Below, one piece after another: positions 3,446 to 58,041 of a DNA stretch of 64,000 bases. Each line of letters starts with the position of its first letter. The first letter of the stretch is position 1. The notes below the pieces were generated by a model that was given only the letters and a program-made list of their open reading frames with translations, searched no databases and had not been told where the DNA came from. Both the position numbers and the translations under genes were made by a program. Source of the stretch: Psilocybe cubensis (lineage: Eukaryota); assembly GCA_017499595.2 (NCBI GenBank), contig CM039001.1, positions 3,906,001 through 3,970,000 of the forward strand. The letters run 5' to 3'.

Positions 3446-4172
3446 TTAGGCTGAAGTGGTAGCAGCTTCTGTCTCGGCAATGTAGTGTCGGGCAAAGAGA
3501 TCATTTTGGATCCAGATCACCTGTAACAACAAAAATTGGCGTTTTGGTCTCGGTTGAAGTAGCGAATGAAAAATGTTACCTTGTTTACGGCCCTCATGAC
3601 TGCGTTTTTTGTTGTAATGTCGAGGTCCGGATGGGTGATAACTGCATTGATGACAATGTCCTGGACGTATCCAAGCAAGATACTACAGTGGATATATTCG
3701 ACTCGGAGAGGGGGTTTCGATTTACTGTCGAACAGTTAACCTTTGGTAACAAAGATACGTGAAGTTCATACCGATGCGCAAATCCTGCCTGTCCTGTATG
3801 CATCAAACCGACTTTATTGAGATACTCCCAACTTGATTGCTTTGAATAGTCCATCGTCACTAGCTTAACCAAATATCCTGCCAAAAAATCCTTTCTGAAC
3901 TTGATCTGAGGATGGTCCAATGAAAGATCTGAAGCGTCTGTTGGGGTGACGCCGTCATAACCTGTTTGTCGGGGTACGAAGGACTTGGCGGTGATGTCAA
4001 AGGAGAGTAACTTTTGGTAAACGGCGTCGACGACGGCTGGGACGAGGGGGCCAACGACAGGTGCGGCGGCGTGTAATGCAGCGGCATCTTCAGACGTGAA
4101 TTCTATGAAGTCTCTTAGATATTTAATGCGTGACGGAAGGTCGTTGAGAGATTCTTCGGAAATGTGCTGCAT
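3446..4172 (-). CDS. Protoglobin / globin-sensor domain protein
   Basis: MQHISEESLNDLPSRIKYLRDFIEFT...VVDAVYQKLLSFDITAKSF...YLNKVGLMHTG, then spliced exons ending VIWIQNDLFARHYIAETEAATTSA*. This matches the pattern of fungal single-domain protoglobins. Confidence 0.88.
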
Positions 4173-5842
4173 AGTGGCTTGAGAATAAAGAGAGTGGTAA
4201 GAGGAACTATACTTTTGACTGCCGCAAGTCGCGTCTTTAAATAATGAAAAATCATTATGAACGAGCACCTTTACGTTCGGGATATTGTTCTAGAATGTCT
4301 CCAGACAATTCCCAGACCGTAGCCGAGCTCAACCGAAGCCAAGATATCAGTCATCGGTGAGAACCGCCAAAGATTTAAAATCACTTCGATGACATTGGTT
4401 GGGACTACATGGATCATCCTTCTGCAGGAACGATCGCGCACTTGTCGCAAATGTCGGAAAAAAAAGGAAACAAATTTCTAATATTCTCACGTTTGGGATT
4501 AATGCGTGTACTATTTTTAGACGATACTGTGTCGTTGTCGGACTGTCCACCTGTTAAGCCACAAAGGACAAGGAAGTGGAGGCCTTTCCCCGGGATATGC
4601 TTTAGTACAGAGCATGCAAACATATACAGGGTATCAAAACTATAATCTCTGCAAGTATAGTCTTAATTAATTGTGGTTACCTTGCAGTCATTCTCAGCCC
4701 GACCAGAAAATATACTTACCCCAACTTACTTCTGTTGTCATTATAATAAATCATTCAAACGTTTAAATGAGTACCCCGGTCCATCTATACTAGAAATATG
4801 GCAGATATGTCCATACACCTTGCGAAAATGTGTCAGATATGTCTATATGCCTTGCGATATGTCGCAGTTAACTTCATATGTGCTATCCTATCCTACGATA
4901 GCTTAAATTAAGAAAGACATTGTTCAGGATCTTCTGGACTCTGTGTATTCATGTACCTTCCAGAAAACATTCCGTCATTGAAAATAACTAACTATGGGAA
5001 CCCCTGCAAATTGAGTTGTTCGATAATCATGTCAACGGTTGCTTATCAGTCATCGACCTCTGGGAAAGACATCGTCTTTCTCGACATGCTACGTTTCTTA
5101 ACTATCTGAATACTTACCCTGAATCCTTATAATACGAATAAGTTAGCAAAGATGACCATCCTGACGTCGAATAAGTCATACCAAAACCGAATGCCACCAA
5201 CCCGGATAGCAAGCATGATAAATGCACCTCAGGCTCGGTGTCCGAATAATATCAGTTTAACAGTCTTATACTAAATGCTTTGTGTTGAGGTACTTTAATG
5301 TTTTGTCATAATGTGAACTACTAGTACGCATATTGCTTCTGGCTTGCTCCTGGCATCAAGTTCACGACTCGGCTCAGTCACGAATAATCTTATCTTATCA
5401 AACTCAACTAAAATCTCTTAGTATCTCTCGGCGGGAACCGCGATGATGGAAATTATTCATCTCATTCCCTCATCCTGTCACTTTGCTTGGACTCTCATCC
5501 ATCGAGGTTTAGGGTACCTCCGGCTCAGTATTGTTTCGTCCATGTTAAAATTCAACATCTTCTTTCAATTACTTCGCTTCAGATCCTTTCATCCTTCCAC
5601 CAGGACCAAGGATAAATGTCGGCAGTACAAACTGGTTAGCGGGCCGCCCTCAATGGAGTACCGAGTGGCCCTCATGAAGAAAGGATCACCTGCTTAATTT
5701 CATTCCCTTTATTTGGTGCGCCAGCGCGACAGGACTACATTTGACGTGCATCCTTGTCTTCTGTTTCTTCTCAAAGGTGGAGGATGCATATAAGGCGAGC
5801 CGTCGATGCAAAGACCTTCACTTTAATTTTTCCGCTTGAACG

Positions 5843-46642: not shown

Positions 46643-48006
46643 ATGCTTCCATCTTTTCTTGGTTCAGGTTTCCTGTCATCTGGCCAAGGACTGGCGACGC
46701 ATCATATTCGAACATTACGACAACCCCGTACCTTATTACCGAAAAAGGTATGGACGCGGACTGAGAACCTCCGCTTTGCCCATAAATGGGCAGAATTTGT
46801 ACGTTCCCGCCTTTGTTTGTCAACCTTACTCGGGAAACATGAACCATATTCGAATGGGATTGTGACTCATATGTGGACTCGAAGAGATACCCGACACTAC
46901 GGTAGGCCTAGAACAGTAAGAGGGCGGTATGCCGCCCCGACCAGAAACCCCGCCCTGCGCCAAATAGGGCCCATTTTGTTGATGTCGGTCAAACAACTGC
47001 GCCCTATAAGAGCGCATCCCGACGGATATGACTCACACAGGCAATCCCGCCGCCTAGCACCCTGTATCCCTCTCACAGCCTACACCACCCGCTAGCCCAC
47101 AGTCGTCCCATACATATCGCATCATCATGAATCATTCCACCAACGTCGGGGTATCTTCCGCGTGGACCCTGTCGTCTAGTAGTTCCTGGGGTACTGCTTC
47201 CGCCTCAGGATATTCTGATTGTGATTCCTCCTCTCAGTCCTGGGGAGTCGATAGGGGCAAGACACCATTCGGCAGTGTGTCCAGTGTCAGCTTAGGCCCG
47301 TCGGGGTCGACGACGAGTGTCCCATCGCCGTGGGGCTCTCAAGCAACCCTCGTCAATGGAGGGCACGCATTGCCGCCAGAGGCCTCGTCGTCGTATAGTT
47401 ATACGCGATATCCAGGGCCTTCACTGTCTACGGCGTCGACGACGACTTTGGTAAATCCACCTGTTGGTGTACAAGGTGATGTTGATCTTTCCCGAAATGA
47501 AAAGTTCAACATTGGCTGATCGATTGATACCCGATGTAGGCCTTTCCCATCTGGGTTATCCGACTCATTTACCTGAGCGGTCACCTCACCTCTATCTTCA
47601 TCCCTCCCTGCAAGACTCGCGCCTATGCATCGACTTTGCCCGTCCTTTGCCAAAGTTTGCACCGAAGAATCTACAGTTTTCAGGTTTTAATCCTAGTATC
47701 ACTTACATGGATGTACATTTTGAAGGTTTCCCTTACTGGACCCTAAGAATTCACACACATCATGCGCTGACGATGTGGGATATAATCAGCCACATTCACT
47801 ACCATCTCCAATCTGTGGATATAGAAGCAACGTCAGCAAATCAAAGAACCACACATAATGTGTTGCATGCTAGAAATCACAATTTGAATCCTGCGGTGCA
47901 CGGCGCTGGGGTCAGGCGCATTGATGCACTGGGCCGCAGAACTAAATTTGCAGGCTTCAAGCCTACTGGTGGCGCCAATGGCTGGATTATCTACTTTTCA
48001 AACTGA
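46643..48006 (+). CDS. Hypothetical protein with Ser-rich region and DUF6699-like C-terminus
   Basis: ORFs 47127-47519 and 47464-48006 can be joined by an intron. C-terminus has FPYWTLRI..LTMWDII..I...L and GVRRIDALGRRTKFAGF. The 5' end is uncertain. Confidence 0.6.
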
Positions 48007-52480: not shown

Positions 52481-54525
52481 TTTAAAAGATACATACGTAT
52501 AATTATGCTTCCCGGTGTCTCTCACCTGTCCCAAAAAACGACGATTTCACTGAGCGGTGATATGTGCGTGCCGTGATGGCCGGTCGAGCGTGAGAACTCA
52601 GTAGAACTCAGCTGTCTATCCAAATTGGCGATATGATACCAACAAGAGAAGCAACCTATCTTCATAAGTCAAGATATCGTGCTTAATACATATCCATATT
52701 CATTTTACATATACTAAAAGTGAAATATATCCACAAATGTATGGCAATATCACTTCATTGACCCTTCACGCACAAAGACCAGCCGAGCTAACCCGCTTTT
52801 CCACGTACATTCGGCAAGCGCGGCATGTACGATCTTGGATTGAGTGCCACAATATCTACTGTTTGACTGCCAATGAATGTTACAACAATAGTTATATGAC
52901 TCGATTTTGTCAATTTATATACATGTCGATTCAAAGGTTTTTGTATTCGGAATAACTGCGCAATCCAACCTAGAGAGTTGGCCGGGAATTAGGGTAGCTG
53001 GCTGCTCTCGTGATCGTGAGAGAATAAGTTTTCTCCAAAATAAAAGCTGGCAATTCCTCATCCTGTTTCCTTTGATTCTTCCACAATCAATAACCGCTTA
53101 TGATGATACTGTCTGGTGCAGCGAGTTGAACCAGCCGCGTCTCGTTTCGACGAGGCAGCAGGCGGTGTTGACATCGTCCGTTTGGCACCACATACCTTGT
53201 TAACAACATAGGGACGGGCTGAAACTATCTGATGGCGGTTCTTGATTTGCTCCTTCCCTTTTTCTGTCGCTGTTATATGTTGGGTCTGGGTTGTAATGGG
53301 AAGTTGGATCAGTTGCATATTTGAAGGTACTATTGTACACGTACGTGGTCTTTTATGTTACTTCCTTCTCTTCGCTCACTTCTGCTATTCCACGTCATTT
53401 GATCCAGTGTTCAAAGTTCTGGTTTTCAAATGATAAACATCTTTTCTTTCATGCCCTCTATCCGCCGCATCCGCATTTTACATAGAATGCATGGTCGCAG
53501 CTACTCAGGCATGCCCCATTCATCGCCTGCACAGCCTGCACATCCTACATTACGCTCTCATGGCCATCTATACTGCGTTTTATTGTCAGGTTCCCACTTC
53601 ACTCTTATTTAAACCGTCTTGAGTGTCGGTGTCTTTTGGAGAGGAATTTCTTACTCTCTCTGAGTCTGGGCACTAGTGTTATCTGGGTGGCACCGCGATC
53701 TGTTGATTGTTTTTTTGGATTCAATGCTGCCGATTCGGATTATCGTTTTCATGGGGTAGTCACTACATGAAGTGAATCATTTGTGTGTTCAGTATGGACC
53801 TCGGTCGACTACGTTGCCTTGTCTCCTCGACCCCAATGATCTGGCAACCCCCTGAAGTTTTGGATGGTTCCCATTCTTCTATCTAGGACTGTTAACGATG
53901 TCCTTGCGGTCATTCTTTCTCAACATTTTCGAGTATCTCCCATCTCCTTGCTTTTATATTTTTATTCGAACTTTGTCTTTGAACAGTGATAATACCTTCG
54001 CATCCGCAACTGCGCTAACTCTTCCCATCACGGCCCGCGCCCAACATACAAACAATGACAGGAACAGGAGAGGAAGGAGCGCATCAAGAACTCACCATCC
54101 CGAGTTGTCGATGATCATTCGGTTATGATTGGCCTTGACGCTTGGGACGGCAATATATTTTCCATAAATCAAGGATGTTATCTAGCAACTGGCAGACCAA
54201 ACGGTGCCTTCCAGCCGACTACAAACCCTGTCCCTTGAAGCTGCTCCTTTGTTCTACATTGCCATATAATTGAATAATTATCATAGGTTTATACAAGTAT
54301 TGAGTTCATGGTGCCCTGTACCTTGGGCTTTCTGAATCGCTGAATATTACTGATAACTTAGAATTAAATAACGGCTGGACTGGCTAATGAGATTTAACCA
54401 CACGAAGCATAAGAAAAACGCAAATCCGATCGAAAAGGGCGAAAGGAACACCCAAATTGCAAAGCAACCGCTCGCGCTCAACAATGAACCAACAATGGAC
54501 ATCCGTGAGAATTTACTTGCAGTCG

Positions 54526-54617
54526 TCGGAGTTTCAAAAAAACCTTCTTAAACAGCAGATCACCTCGTTCTGTATTACAACCCATTGTTCGTTTCGACTT
54601 GGTTCATACAGCCTCTC
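54526..54617 (+). promoter_or_regulatory. Conserved leader/promoter boxes shared with 55864-55980 (minus strand)
   Basis: TCGGAGTTTCAAAAAAA is identical at 17/17 nt. A 38-nt box just before the ATG is identical at 35/38 nt. Confidence 0.7.
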
Positions 54618-54625
54618 ACTCAATC

Positions 54626-54967
54626 ATGGACTTTCTTTATCGCTACGTGTACGCTTATGAGATCAATGCGCGTCTTATTGGCGAAGTTTATGGATTCGAC
54701 GCTTTTGCTGATCGCAGCAAAATGCTGAAGGTCATTAAAACAGTTCACAACGAAATCAGAGAGACAGGCATAAATGTCCATTTTGCGATTGGCACAAGGA
54801 TTAAACATATCGACAACGAAGATGATACAGTGACCCTCATTATTTTCGACCATCACCATGACGAAGCCCGATTAAGAGAGAAAGTCGCCAACCACACCAC
54901 TCCAGCAGAATTTGCTCCATACTCTAACATCCTCATAGGTCCTGATGTCTACAAGAGTAGCGCATAA
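54626..54967 (+). CDS. Small hypothetical protein (113 aa), paralog of 55522-55854
   Basis: Uninterrupted ORF MDFLYRYVYAYEINARLIG...ILIGPDVYKSSA aligns end to end with the convergent ORF. A probable 3'-UTR intron follows the stop. Confidence 0.8.
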   Translation: MDFLYRYVYAYEINARLIGEVYGFDAFADRSKMLKVIKTVHNEIRETGINVHFAIGTRIKHIDNEDDTVTLIIFDHHHDEARLREKVANHTTPAEFAPYSNILIGPDVYKSSA

Positions 54968-55521
54968 TTATGGTGAGTGTTACCTTTAATTGGGTCGACT
55001 CGAGCTCTCATTAATTAGTTCTTTATACCAGTGGATGAGATTCCATCGCCTGATATTTCTGACGACCCCATCTCTGAACCCTTTAAACCACTCTCCCTTT
55101 CTTGAGTAGTAGTCTCTTCCCTGGATCCCTGACACAAATAAGTCTAGATTTCTAGGAGTTCACATACATACAAAGACATTGTAGACGTAGATACCATGAA
55201 CATTCAACCCCGAGTGTAGAACATGTCTTTGTTGTTCCACGTCAATTAACTATCCAAGATTATTCTGAAGCCACGAACCAAACTACACCAAGAAATCAAT
55301 CTGATAAATACGGAAACGTTGAGGTTGGTTGCCATGTTGAACCGAAAATAAAGTTTCAAGTGCTCAGTATTCATTGATTGTCTTCATACGTATTGAAAAT
55401 AATCAACAAAGCTGGTATAGACTGGCTTAGGACAAAATGAGGATGTAGAAAAGTAGAATATGGTTAGTTACGATGCATCAACAGACTCAACAGAGAAAAG
55501 CACATACCAGTTTTGGAAAAT

Positions 55522-55854
55522 TTATCCAGCAATCTCGCAAACAACAGGTCCGGAAAGGAGGTACATAAAATGGTCGAGAACGGGCGGTGTTGGTGGCAGG
55601 GGTTTGTCAAGTAATACTTGTTTGACATTAGCGTCGTCCAGAACAAAGATGTAGTATGGCTCATCCCCGGGAGATTCAGATAGCGAAGATTGCATGATTA
55701 CATGGCTGTCAACTTTTCGAATTCGATTATACACCACTTCAGCGACATCCATGTAAATTCCAAAGTTGGTCTGGGCATCGAGGTCCAATGCGGTAACAAT
55801 TTTTTCCCGGTCCAGTTTATAGCCGCGGACAAAACGCTTGGTAGTAGCACCCAT
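55522..55854 (-). CDS. Small hypothetical protein (110 aa), paralog of 54626-54967
   Basis: MGATTKRFVRGYKLDREKIV...LLSGPVVCEIAG; shares motifs and the upstream leader with its partner. Confidence 0.8.
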   Translation of the reverse strand: MGATTKRFVRGYKLDREKIVTALDLDAQTNFGIYMDVAEVVYNRIRKVDSHVIMQSSLSESPGDEPYYIFVLDDANVKQVLLDKPLPPTPPVLDHFMYLLSGPVVCEIAG

Positions 55855-56439
55855 TGTTTGAAAGAGAGGCTGTATGAAGCAAGTGGAAACGAAGAATGGG
55901 TGGTTGTAAGTTGGGAAAGACGTGACGTTGCGGCTGGTTGCGCCCTGGACCTTCTTAAGAGGATTTTTTTGAAACTCCGATTCATGACCCTTACTACTTG
56001 TATGCTCTAAAAAGGACTAGTAACCTAATTACAAGCTTTCCTCTGGCATTGCTACGGCTGCCGAAATGTCAAACAGGAATATTTTATGTTGGGTGCACAA
56101 TGCCTCCTTAGAGATTAAGCAAAAATCACAGTGAGGTGCCATGAGATGCTGCCCCACCATTGTCGCGTCGAATGACTTGTTTTTACTTGACCTTATGCTT
56201 GACATTCAACATTTTATTTAATTGAGGAAGAACATTCAACACGACTGTTCCTTTCTCATCCTCTTACTCTTCGACAAAATTATTATATCTTTCACCTGTT
56301 TTCCAGGGTCGTTATTACCTCGGGCACACGGAGTAACTTTGTGTTCACTTCAGTACCTATTTTTACCATTTCAGCTGTTTTTCCGGCTACAATAATCTCA
56401 AATAACTGATTGAGAGAAGGTTTTCCATCACCCTGATTG

Positions 56440-56954
56440 TTATAGACATAAACTGAACTGTATAATTCATGAAAAGGAGGAGATTAGTTTAATGTCACTG
56501 CAGTGTAGCAACTCTCACGTATATGTTATCCACAACGCAGGTGTACGGAGCATCACAGACTGAAAATATCAGAGTCAGTCCGAGAATCGAGTTCATGTCA
56601 CTCCTTGAAATTGGATGGAAATTGAAAGAAAATCGGGGTTTGTTTTGCACACCTACCTACAGGACCCGTCCATCCAAGTCCACCACACTGAGCGTAGTGA
56701 GCGACAGTAGTTCCGGTAGGCACTGGGGCGGTTGAAGTCTCAGCTGGAAATGTGGCTGTGGGCAGACTAGAAGAACTGTTATCACAGATGATCATTGTGG
56801 ATCCAGATCCAGGCGCCCATGTCAGATACATGGAGGCAGTTTAGTTCATTGACAATTACCTTTGGGCATTGACAACAAAGGACTGGAAATGATGGGTAAG
56901 CTCCCATGTTAAACTCCCAAGAACGAGGATGCGGAGAGCTGTTAATGCGAGCAT
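56440..56954 (-). CDS. Small secreted CBM1-only protein (about 90 aa)
   Basis: Four exons give [90 protein letters not shown]. The CBM1 four-cysteine pattern is intact. Confidence 0.82.
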
Positions 56955-57346
56955 TGGGAAGAGAACTGTGAAGTGAAGTACAATAATTTGTTCTGCGGAA
57001 GAAGACAGGATTATGTACCCAGCTTACCGTTCCTTGACTTCGGAAAATCATCATCTATCTCCAATAGAAGTACTGATATCCGATGGATACATATAGGACG
57101 TTCCCGAGTGCTGACCATGTTTTGTATTCTCAGGTATTCTCGGATCATTCTATCGGTCAACCTCGAAAGTTGGAATACAAATGACGTTCGTTGGCTCTGT
57201 GCTTAAGAAACTCAGGCATTCATTTGTTTGTCGATGACTTAAATCACCGCTTCCTATCAACAGAGACTAGGTATTTTCCTGGATTGTCCCCTTTGATGTT
57301 CATTTTCAAAGTACGACAATCACCTGGAAGCTTCTTAACTACAATA

Positions 57347-58041
57347 GGGACCTTCAGAATTGAAATACGACCCGACTAGTCGGTCGTATTTGGCCCTGTC
57401 CGATTACGCTTAGTAAGTCAAAGTTCAAGGTCCGCTTTGTGACTGATGTGACGGAATTGCGGCCCTCTTATCACTGGCTTCCACCATCTTCAATCCTCTC
57501 CCCATCACCATTCCTATGGAGGCTTTCATTTCATGCCTGTATATATTAGACTATTAAGATTTTGCTCTCCATGAAGTACTGACCGTCTTTCTGGTCTTGT
57601 TTGCATGATCAAGGAGTGATGATATGAAATATTTCACTCATCAGTGCCTGTAATTTAGATACTGCTGTAACAGCACCTCCAGAGGACATTTTCGCAACAC
57701 ATAGAAACACATTTTGTTTGTTTAATCATTGTTTAATTCTCTAACCACACAGGAGATGCACCAAACACGTCAATACTGAAATGAGAGTATAAGAAGCAAG
57801 CATTGATTCGGTCTCATCAACCCCCATCTCTGTTTCCCCTTGCCATTTTTTCTTAGTATCGCTCAATGCCTATTCAAAAATCTACGTAGATTAAATATTA
57901 TCTACGCTGTCTACGTCATTGGGAGTGACATAGAAGTGACAGTCCAAGACAAGGCCAAGCACAGTCGGACTTCGAATCATCAAATCGGTGGCGTCGAAAT
58001 ACGACCGACTAGTCGGGTCGTATTTCAATTCTGAAGGTCCC
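57347..58041. mobile_element. 695-bp MITE with perfect 45-bp TIRs, flanked by TA
   Basis: GGGACCTTCAGAATTGAAATACGACCCGACTAGTCGGTCGTATTT at 57347-57391 and its exact reverse complement at 57997-58041. TA on both outer sides. Confidence 0.85.

Follow-up and report, generated by a model that had tools for sequence, protein, structure and literature searches.

A 64,000-nucleotide (nt) stretch of the Psilocybe cubensis genome (NCBI GenBank assembly GCA_017499595.2, contig CM039001.1, positions 3,906,001 to 3,970,000 of the forward strand; hereafter the window, in whose numbering all positions are given) carries two small genes, A on the plus strand and B on the minus strand, which converge tail-to-tail and whose leaders are much better kept than their proteins. 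We consider it probable that A and B are the old inverted duplicates of a lineage-restricted gene, and that selection has kept a promoter element and the leader in both copies. A first-pass annotation of the letters alone had drawn attention to the pair, and its structural claims stood up to analysis: two facing open reading frames (ORFs) of ~110 amino acids (aa) can be aligned at low identity, and they have an exact 17-nt box and a second box of 38 nt (35/38 identical) in common upstream.

The two proteins appear to be weakly but genuinely related. BLASTP aligned them colinearly (residues 6-108 of A with 7-105 of B) with 20/103 identities (19%) at an E value of 0.001. The local alignment score of 52 (z 6.2) was reached by 3 of 5000 shuffles, as was the semi-global score. 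A and B also resemble each other in length, in the position of an intron in the 3' untranslated region (UTR), and in the order of their predicted secondary-structure elements. Their coding DNA, however, is at the random level, ~40% identity; over 109 aligned codons the identity was 0.37, 0.52, and 0.30 at codon positions 1, 2, and 3, respectively. The proportion of synonymous differences (pS) was 0.80, which is saturated and too high to correct, and the non-synonymous distance (dN) was 0.98. Because synonymous sites are saturated, the divergence of the two proteins looks like the age of the duplication; the duplication would therefore be old, and neutral DNA of equal age would no longer be alignable. 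The spacer between the two upstream boxes and the 3' regions are indeed no longer alignable, matching what is expected of old neutral DNA.

Against this background the two upstream boxes stand out, with 24/26 identical positions between A and B in box 1 and 43/50 in box 2. The claim that the leaders are kept far better than the proteins was thus confirmed (86-92% identity in the boxes versus 19% in the proteins and a pS of 0.80 in the coding DNA). The 17-mer within box 1 is exact in both copies; allowing up to 2 mismatches, it matched twice in the window, where 0.05 matches would be expected, and none of 100 shuffles gave two matches. Similarly, the 37-nt core of box 2, with its three G/C positions, matched twice at up to 3 mismatches versus 0.00 expected. 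The two inverted-repeat pairs formed by the boxes are unique in the window, and an nhmmer profile of both leaders found no further match in these 64 kb (next best E 4.7). The three differences within the 37-nt core lie at 54587, 54596, and 54602 in A and at 55894, 55885, and 55879 in B, spaced by 9 and 6 nt; each is a G in A versus a C in B in gene orientation, that is, a G on the chromosome plus strand in both copies. Between the boxes, the spacer is 25 nt long in A versus 50 nt in B (a length difference of 25 nt), with 12/25 identical positions in the alignable part as counted from the leader alignment, and the similarity of A and B stops ~8 nt before each ATG. Such mosaic conservation, in which the boxes are kept and the spacer is not, at what would be the mRNA start, is the pattern that selection on cis-regulatory sequence is expected to produce. 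In the other haplotype, 6 insertions or deletions lie upstream of A and 1 upstream of B, all of them outside the boxes, which is not significant as the boxes make up about a quarter of that DNA.

We then followed the transcription of the pair in public sequencing data. Five runs of one organism contain the stretch, none of them on record as RNA; two runs from one study (X1 and X2) were taken as RNA from their spliced joints and patchy cover (15 and 12 of 30 bins, respectively), and two others (X3 and X5) are DNA-like. Both A and B are covered by RNA-like contigs of X1 and X2, and we conclude that they are genuine transcribed genes. A variant A contig begins at 54582 in both X1 and X2, and a B variant contig (X2 record 11) ends at 55899. 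The two positions are homologous and mark a single base of box 2 (CCATT...), with one extra unmatched letter on each contig. If the contig ends are taken at face value, box 2 spans about -4 to +37 of the mRNA, which is nearly the whole 5'UTR, and box 1 is untranscribed promoter DNA at about -55 to -30 in A and -80 to -55 in B. On the same footing, the strong cis-element that the first-pass annotation had postulated finds support as a discrete stretch of upstream DNA in two parts, one a block of promoter DNA and the other the 5'UTR itself. No RNA-like cover was seen in X1 or X2 over box 1 or over 55900-57227, and this absence was not used as evidence. The contig depth of A and B was greater than that of neighboring genes, a measure not usable for ranking genes.

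The resulting 5'UTRs would measure ~45 nt for A and ~46 nt for B. Both lack an AUG, and the start codon of each ORF is therefore the first AUG in its mRNA. Both leaders are rich in pyrimidines (69% in A and 74% in B), and both fold more weakly than their shuffles (z +0.67 for A and +0.82 for B; in each case 158/200 shuffles folded at least as well). A search of Rfam with 53500-57000 gave 0 matches at E ≤ 1. The weak folding and the lack of an Rfam match speak against a structured cis-regulatory leader RNA, and, because the leaders fold less stably than shuffles, the constraint would be on the linear sequence and not on a hairpin. In filamentous fungi, strongly expressed genes are known to have tracts rich in pyrimidines at their start sites, which fits the composition of the leaders but not a near-identity over 50 nt; our literature search on CT-rich leaders, which bears on the fungal 'CT-box' idea, returned a plant passage only. 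Inspected by eye, box 1 fitted neither a heat-shock element nor a TATA element, and both readings were dropped. The first 10 nt of the A leader are complementary to the start-codon context of B, which we judged to be chance.

Next, we considered whether the boxes might themselves be protein-coding, as an N-terminal extension, an upstream ORF, or an antisense mini-ORF. The sole matching public protein, XP_047750967.1 (P0001; P. cubensis, 229 aa, a cluster of one), contains B as its C-terminal 110 residues (residues 120-229, 100% identical), preceded by a signal peptide, the first 13 of the 29 CBM_1 positions, and a read-through of the B leader. Upstream of each ATG the reading frame is open; an upstream ORF at 54484-54660 reads box 1 as SEFQKNLLK, in the same frame as the B read-through, and box 2 holds an antisense ORF of 10-11 codons (MNQVETNNGL / MKQVETKNGWL). 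The three G/C differences in the core also share one codon phase, which makes them third positions both of the antisense mini-ORF and of one sense frame, but three sites are too few for a periodicity test. P0001, however, is chimeric, because its CBM_1 domain is cut at 13/29 and the remaining half (CDAPYTCVVDNIY) is encoded at 56519-56557 on the minus strand. Moreover, the RNA-like contigs stop short of box 1, and the distance from box 2 to the ATG is 45 nt in A versus 46 nt in B, so that box 2, read in frame with the ATG, gives unrelated peptides in the two genes. Box 2 is therefore neither coding in phase with the ORFs nor an N-terminal extension of them, and we regard a coding role of the boxes in any of these forms as very improbable.

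The boxes could also belong, as terminal or subterminal inverted repeats, to a transposon of the foldback or MITE-like (miniature inverted-repeat transposable element) type that carries both ORFs, since two nested inverted-repeat pairs bracket a segment of 1455 bp. We find this scarcely credible. There is no target-site duplication (the flanks read ...GCAGTCG and TTCATGA...), neither a pattern search nor nhmmer found a further copy in the 64-kb window, the box pattern gave 0 matches in the metagenome contigs, and the haplotypes of X3 and X5 show no presence/absence difference. The repeats fall on the mRNA 5' ends of a pair of homologous genes, an arrangement that an inverted gene duplication explains fully.

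Both genes carry an intron directly behind the stop codon. In A, the joint 54971->55031 (cut +1) is read by one contig each in X1 and X2 and is absent from X3 and X5, which read through. In B, the intron was inferred from the loose end of a contig identical to the window. The donor sites of the two introns lie at the matching place in the DNA alignment, and the common 3'UTR intron marks, once more, the common descent of A and B.

To gauge the constraint on the proteins, we turned to variant copies in the RNA-like runs. Over 54582-54910 and 55519-55899, X1 and X2 contain variant contigs that are 7-13% different and have a depth of 200-667, beside window-identical ones at a depth of 18-38. The X1/X2-specific letters are not shown by X3 or X5; we take the variants to be alleles that belong to another strain, with a strain-specific second locus as the alternative. 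The variant B contig differs from the window at 27/381 positions, 22 of which are listed. Of these listed differences, 17 fall at third codon positions (P about 3e-5 against 1/3), and 15 are synonymous versus 7 non-synonymous, a clear signature of purifying selection on the B reading frame. The earlier description of the pair as "diversifying proteins" is not supported by this result. The variant A contigs differ from the window at 12/134 and 25/199 positions; among the 13 of at least 37 differences that are listed, 5 are synonymous and 8 non-synonymous, and in this small sample A looks less constrained than B. Conservation of the leader among haplotypes is unreadable, with 163 of 203 differences not listed. 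The ~15 synonymous differences in the B variant imply deep divergence, and the 3'UTR of this variant no longer aligns at 85%.

The main rival to long-term selection on the boxes is concerted evolution, in which recent gene conversion, or template switching from one inverted arm to the other, copied one leader over its partner; the first-pass annotation had itself pointed to recent gene conversion. The geometry would favor intrachromosomal exchange, as the inverted repeats lie 1.2-1.4 kb apart, and the five unlisted differences of the A variant might fall in the leader, in which case alleles would be no more alike than paralogs. Against this, identity is confined to two patches (26 and 50 nt), and the spacer that splits them has 12/25 identical positions and differs in length by 25 nt; recent copying across both patches should have homogenized the spacer. 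The patches are also flanked by non-homologous DNA (coding identity ~40%), leaving little substrate for heteroduplex formation, and patches so short at 86-92% identity are poor recombination substrates. We therefore hold recent conversion to be unlikely.

We reasoned that an ancestral small gene was probably duplicated tail-to-tail long ago. Each copy would be an independent transcription unit, consisting of an untranscribed 26-nt box, a spacer that varies, a conserved block reaching from about position -4, relative to the mRNA start, to ~37 nt into the 45-46-nt leader, and an ORF of 110-113 aa with an immediate 3'UTR intron. The proteins would have drifted to 19% identity simply through age, whereas the boxes, at 86-92% identity, would have been held by selection as cis-regulatory sequence. 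Box 1 is most likely a transcription-factor site, and box 2 is most likely an initiator or core promoter combined with a leader that is unstructured, free of AUG, and rich in pyrimidines; box 2 may act as DNA or as RNA. With such a common leader, the two mRNAs would start alike and behave alike in translation. From the common boxes and the joint presence of A and B in the two RNA-like runs, we infer that the two genes are probably co-regulated.

Several observations weigh against an old duplicate with selected boxes. Selection on the boxes is deduced from a single paralog comparison, that of A with B, and the mRNA starts come from contig ends of one study, a weak hint. Because its distance to the start varies, being ~25 nt greater in B than in A, box 1 cannot be a TATA-like core element acting at a fixed distance. 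The all-G-versus-C spectrum of the three core differences is odd. Among the 12/134 differences of the A variant over 54582-54715, 7 are listed (1 in the leader and 6 in the ORF), and the other 5 could fall in the leader, in which case strict constraint on it would be less convincing. Lastly, an old duplication predicts orthologs in related mushrooms, and our protein searches found none; small unannotated genes, such as A itself, would escape searches of this kind.

The exact sequence of A is absent from the public protein collection. Searched against near-length public proteins, A gave 2 candidates, none at E ≤ 0.01, and a profile of A and B together gave 43 candidates, none at E ≤ 0.1; among longer proteins, the 117 candidates for A included no relative. 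The search of B against 1.84 billion representatives returned 1 match, which is B itself inside P0001. In the metagenome contigs, protein patterns picked out 161 stretches, 0 of which were confirmed. Pfam assigned A to 0 families and gave for B only Ykof (E 0.041, 14.8 bits, below the cut-off of 21), the best hit of a sequence profile search of the PDB had an E value of 0.91, and PHROGs and NCBIfam gave nothing below E 0.1. Weak leads came from the ESM Atlas, to FAD-oxidase_C fragments for A (0.90, 147 shared features) and to phage hypotheticals for B (0.88). A literature search found nothing on the locus tag and nothing relevant on the P. cubensis transcriptome, orphan genes, or heterozygosity. 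So far, the A/B gene appears to be restricted to P. cubensis.

A moderately confident AlphaFold2 model was obtained for A, with a predicted local distance difference test (pLDDT) score of 72.4 and a predicted template-modeling (TM) score of 0.64. Its elements (strand E5-14, helices H15-22 and H30-45, strands E52-58 and E68-78, helices H80-89 and H94-99, and strand E103-112) follow the order beta-alpha-alpha-beta-beta-alpha-alpha-beta, which accommodates the ferredoxin-like topology beta-alpha-beta-beta-alpha-beta. The model of B was poor (pLDDT 49.5), with its elements in the same order as in A. Foldseek found 0/487 PDB matches for A at E ≤ 0.001 (best E 0.14, TM about 0.36-0.41), and VIA-align against 48161 chains gave 3 at Z ≥ 5 and 0 at Z ≥ 8, the best Z of 5.2 being below a meaningful level. 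Weak generic fold matches were to S6, LsrG/ABM, EthD, and ACT. On these predictions we call A and B putative small cytoplasmic ferredoxin-like domains, without a signal peptide and in no named family. Prediction of an A+B complex returned 'no answer' with a score of 0.00, which weighs neither for nor against a heterodimer; our results likewise speak neither way on the defense or recognition roles that the first-pass annotation had suggested.

A more elaborate scheme would make the 45-nt leader an RNA-level operator (a binding site for an RNA-binding protein, or a localization or translation signal) that joins two ancient, Psilocybe-restricted ferredoxin-like proteins working as a pair, with the deeply divergent and far more abundant variant transcripts as balanced old alleles at a non-self recognition or killer/antidote-type locus. 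We judge this to be quite improbable. Wider interest would arise only if further genes of the genome carry the boxes as a mark, or if the divergent variants turn out to be ancient alleles.

Table 1. Coordinates of the gene pair and its upstream boxes in the window
Feature	Position	Strand	Details
Box 1 of A	54526-54551	+	TCGGAGTTTCAAAAAAA + CCTTCTTAA; inverted repeat I3, 26 nt, 92%
Box 2 of A	54577-54625	+	Putative initiator region and whole 5'UTR; inverted repeat I1 (54577-54626), 50 nt, 86%
ORF / coding region A	54626-54967	+	113 aa; ORF list, RNA-like contig cover, homology to B
3'UTR intron of A	54973-55031	+	59 nt, GT..AG, GTGAGT...CCAG; 5 nt behind the stop codon
3'UTR exon of A, minimum extent	55032-55296	+	X1 record 4 to 55296, X2 record 9 to 55274, 0 differences
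Start of second 3'UTR exon of B, minimum extent	55412-55425	-	Equals the 14-letter loose end of X1 record 6 at 55508
3'UTR intron of B (inferred)	55426-55507	-	82 nt, GT..AG, GTATGT...CCTAAG; 14 nt behind the stop codon
ORF / coding region B	55522-55854	-	110 aa; ORF list, RNA-like contigs, third-position variant bias
Box 2 of B	55855-55904	-	Putative initiator region and whole 5'UTR; inverted repeat I1, 50 nt, 86%
Box 1 of B	55955-55980	-	Partner of 54526-54551 in inverted repeat I3; 26 nt, 92%

Around the pair, we observed a small stand-alone gene upstream of B (56437-56957, minus strand) with a signal peptide, one CBM1 (fungal cellulose-binding) domain, and about three short introns. Upstream of A, at 53985-54314, one X3 haplotype and X5 have 38 other letters in place of 328 nt. 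At 57339-57400, many contigs of all four runs break with differing loose ends and the DNA depth goes from ~24 to 100-143; a dispersed repeat begins at ~57342, where there is a short palindrome (AAATACGACC...GGTCGTATTT). Further away, exon-sized ORFs with Pfam matches to Protoglobin (3597-4289, minus strand; E 3.7e-27) and DUF6699 (47455-48003, plus strand; E 4e-13) are ordinary neighbors, unlinked to the pair.

For the annotation of P. cubensis, the analysis adds A as an unannotated expressed gene and corrects a public model in which B is fused to half of the CBM1 gene. It also delimits a compact promoter-plus-leader module of ~100-125 bp that is conserved in duplicate and might serve as an expression element in Psilocybe. 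The pair would be a clean example of cis-regulatory DNA outlasting its protein, which is instructive and unsurprising.

We compared the pair with known systems. The predicted fold of A has counterparts among ferredoxin-like and dimeric alpha+beta-barrel proteins (LsrG, EthD, ABM, and stress-responsive Dabb) and ribosomal protein S6, which are ~100-110 aa long and have a similar order of elements to the A model; A and B, however, have no sequence match to them in Pfam or the PDB, and the resemblance is of fold only. Some gene families, such as those of conotoxin precursors, have a conserved coding signal or propeptide and a variable mature part under positive selection. As in A and B, conservation is much higher in the 5' part of the gene than in the part for the mature protein, but in A and B the conserved part is non-coding, and B is under purifying selection. 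The mimp element is a transposon that occurs dispersed, has inverted repeats of its own, and sits upstream of the promoter. Effector genes of Fusarium oxysporum are described as carrying this MITE in their promoters (PMC3599309). The likeness to A and B lies in a short common upstream element that marks small, otherwise dissimilar fungal genes and could be used to find further members. Unlike mimp, the boxes of A and B are seen in only two copies and have no target-site duplication, one of the blocks appears to be a transcribed leader, and the proteins lack a signal peptide. A further parallel is with paralog footprints, that is, duplicated genes with conserved promoter and 5'UTR blocks, in which, as in A and B, short blocks at the mRNA start or just upstream of it are kept and the remaining non-coding DNA and the synonymous sites are saturated. 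Compared with these, the contrast in A and B is extreme (19% in the protein versus 86-92% in the leader), and the family has no known relatives that could provide the usual cross-species confirmation. Overall, we take the finding as a sign of common regulation and not of a new type of system.

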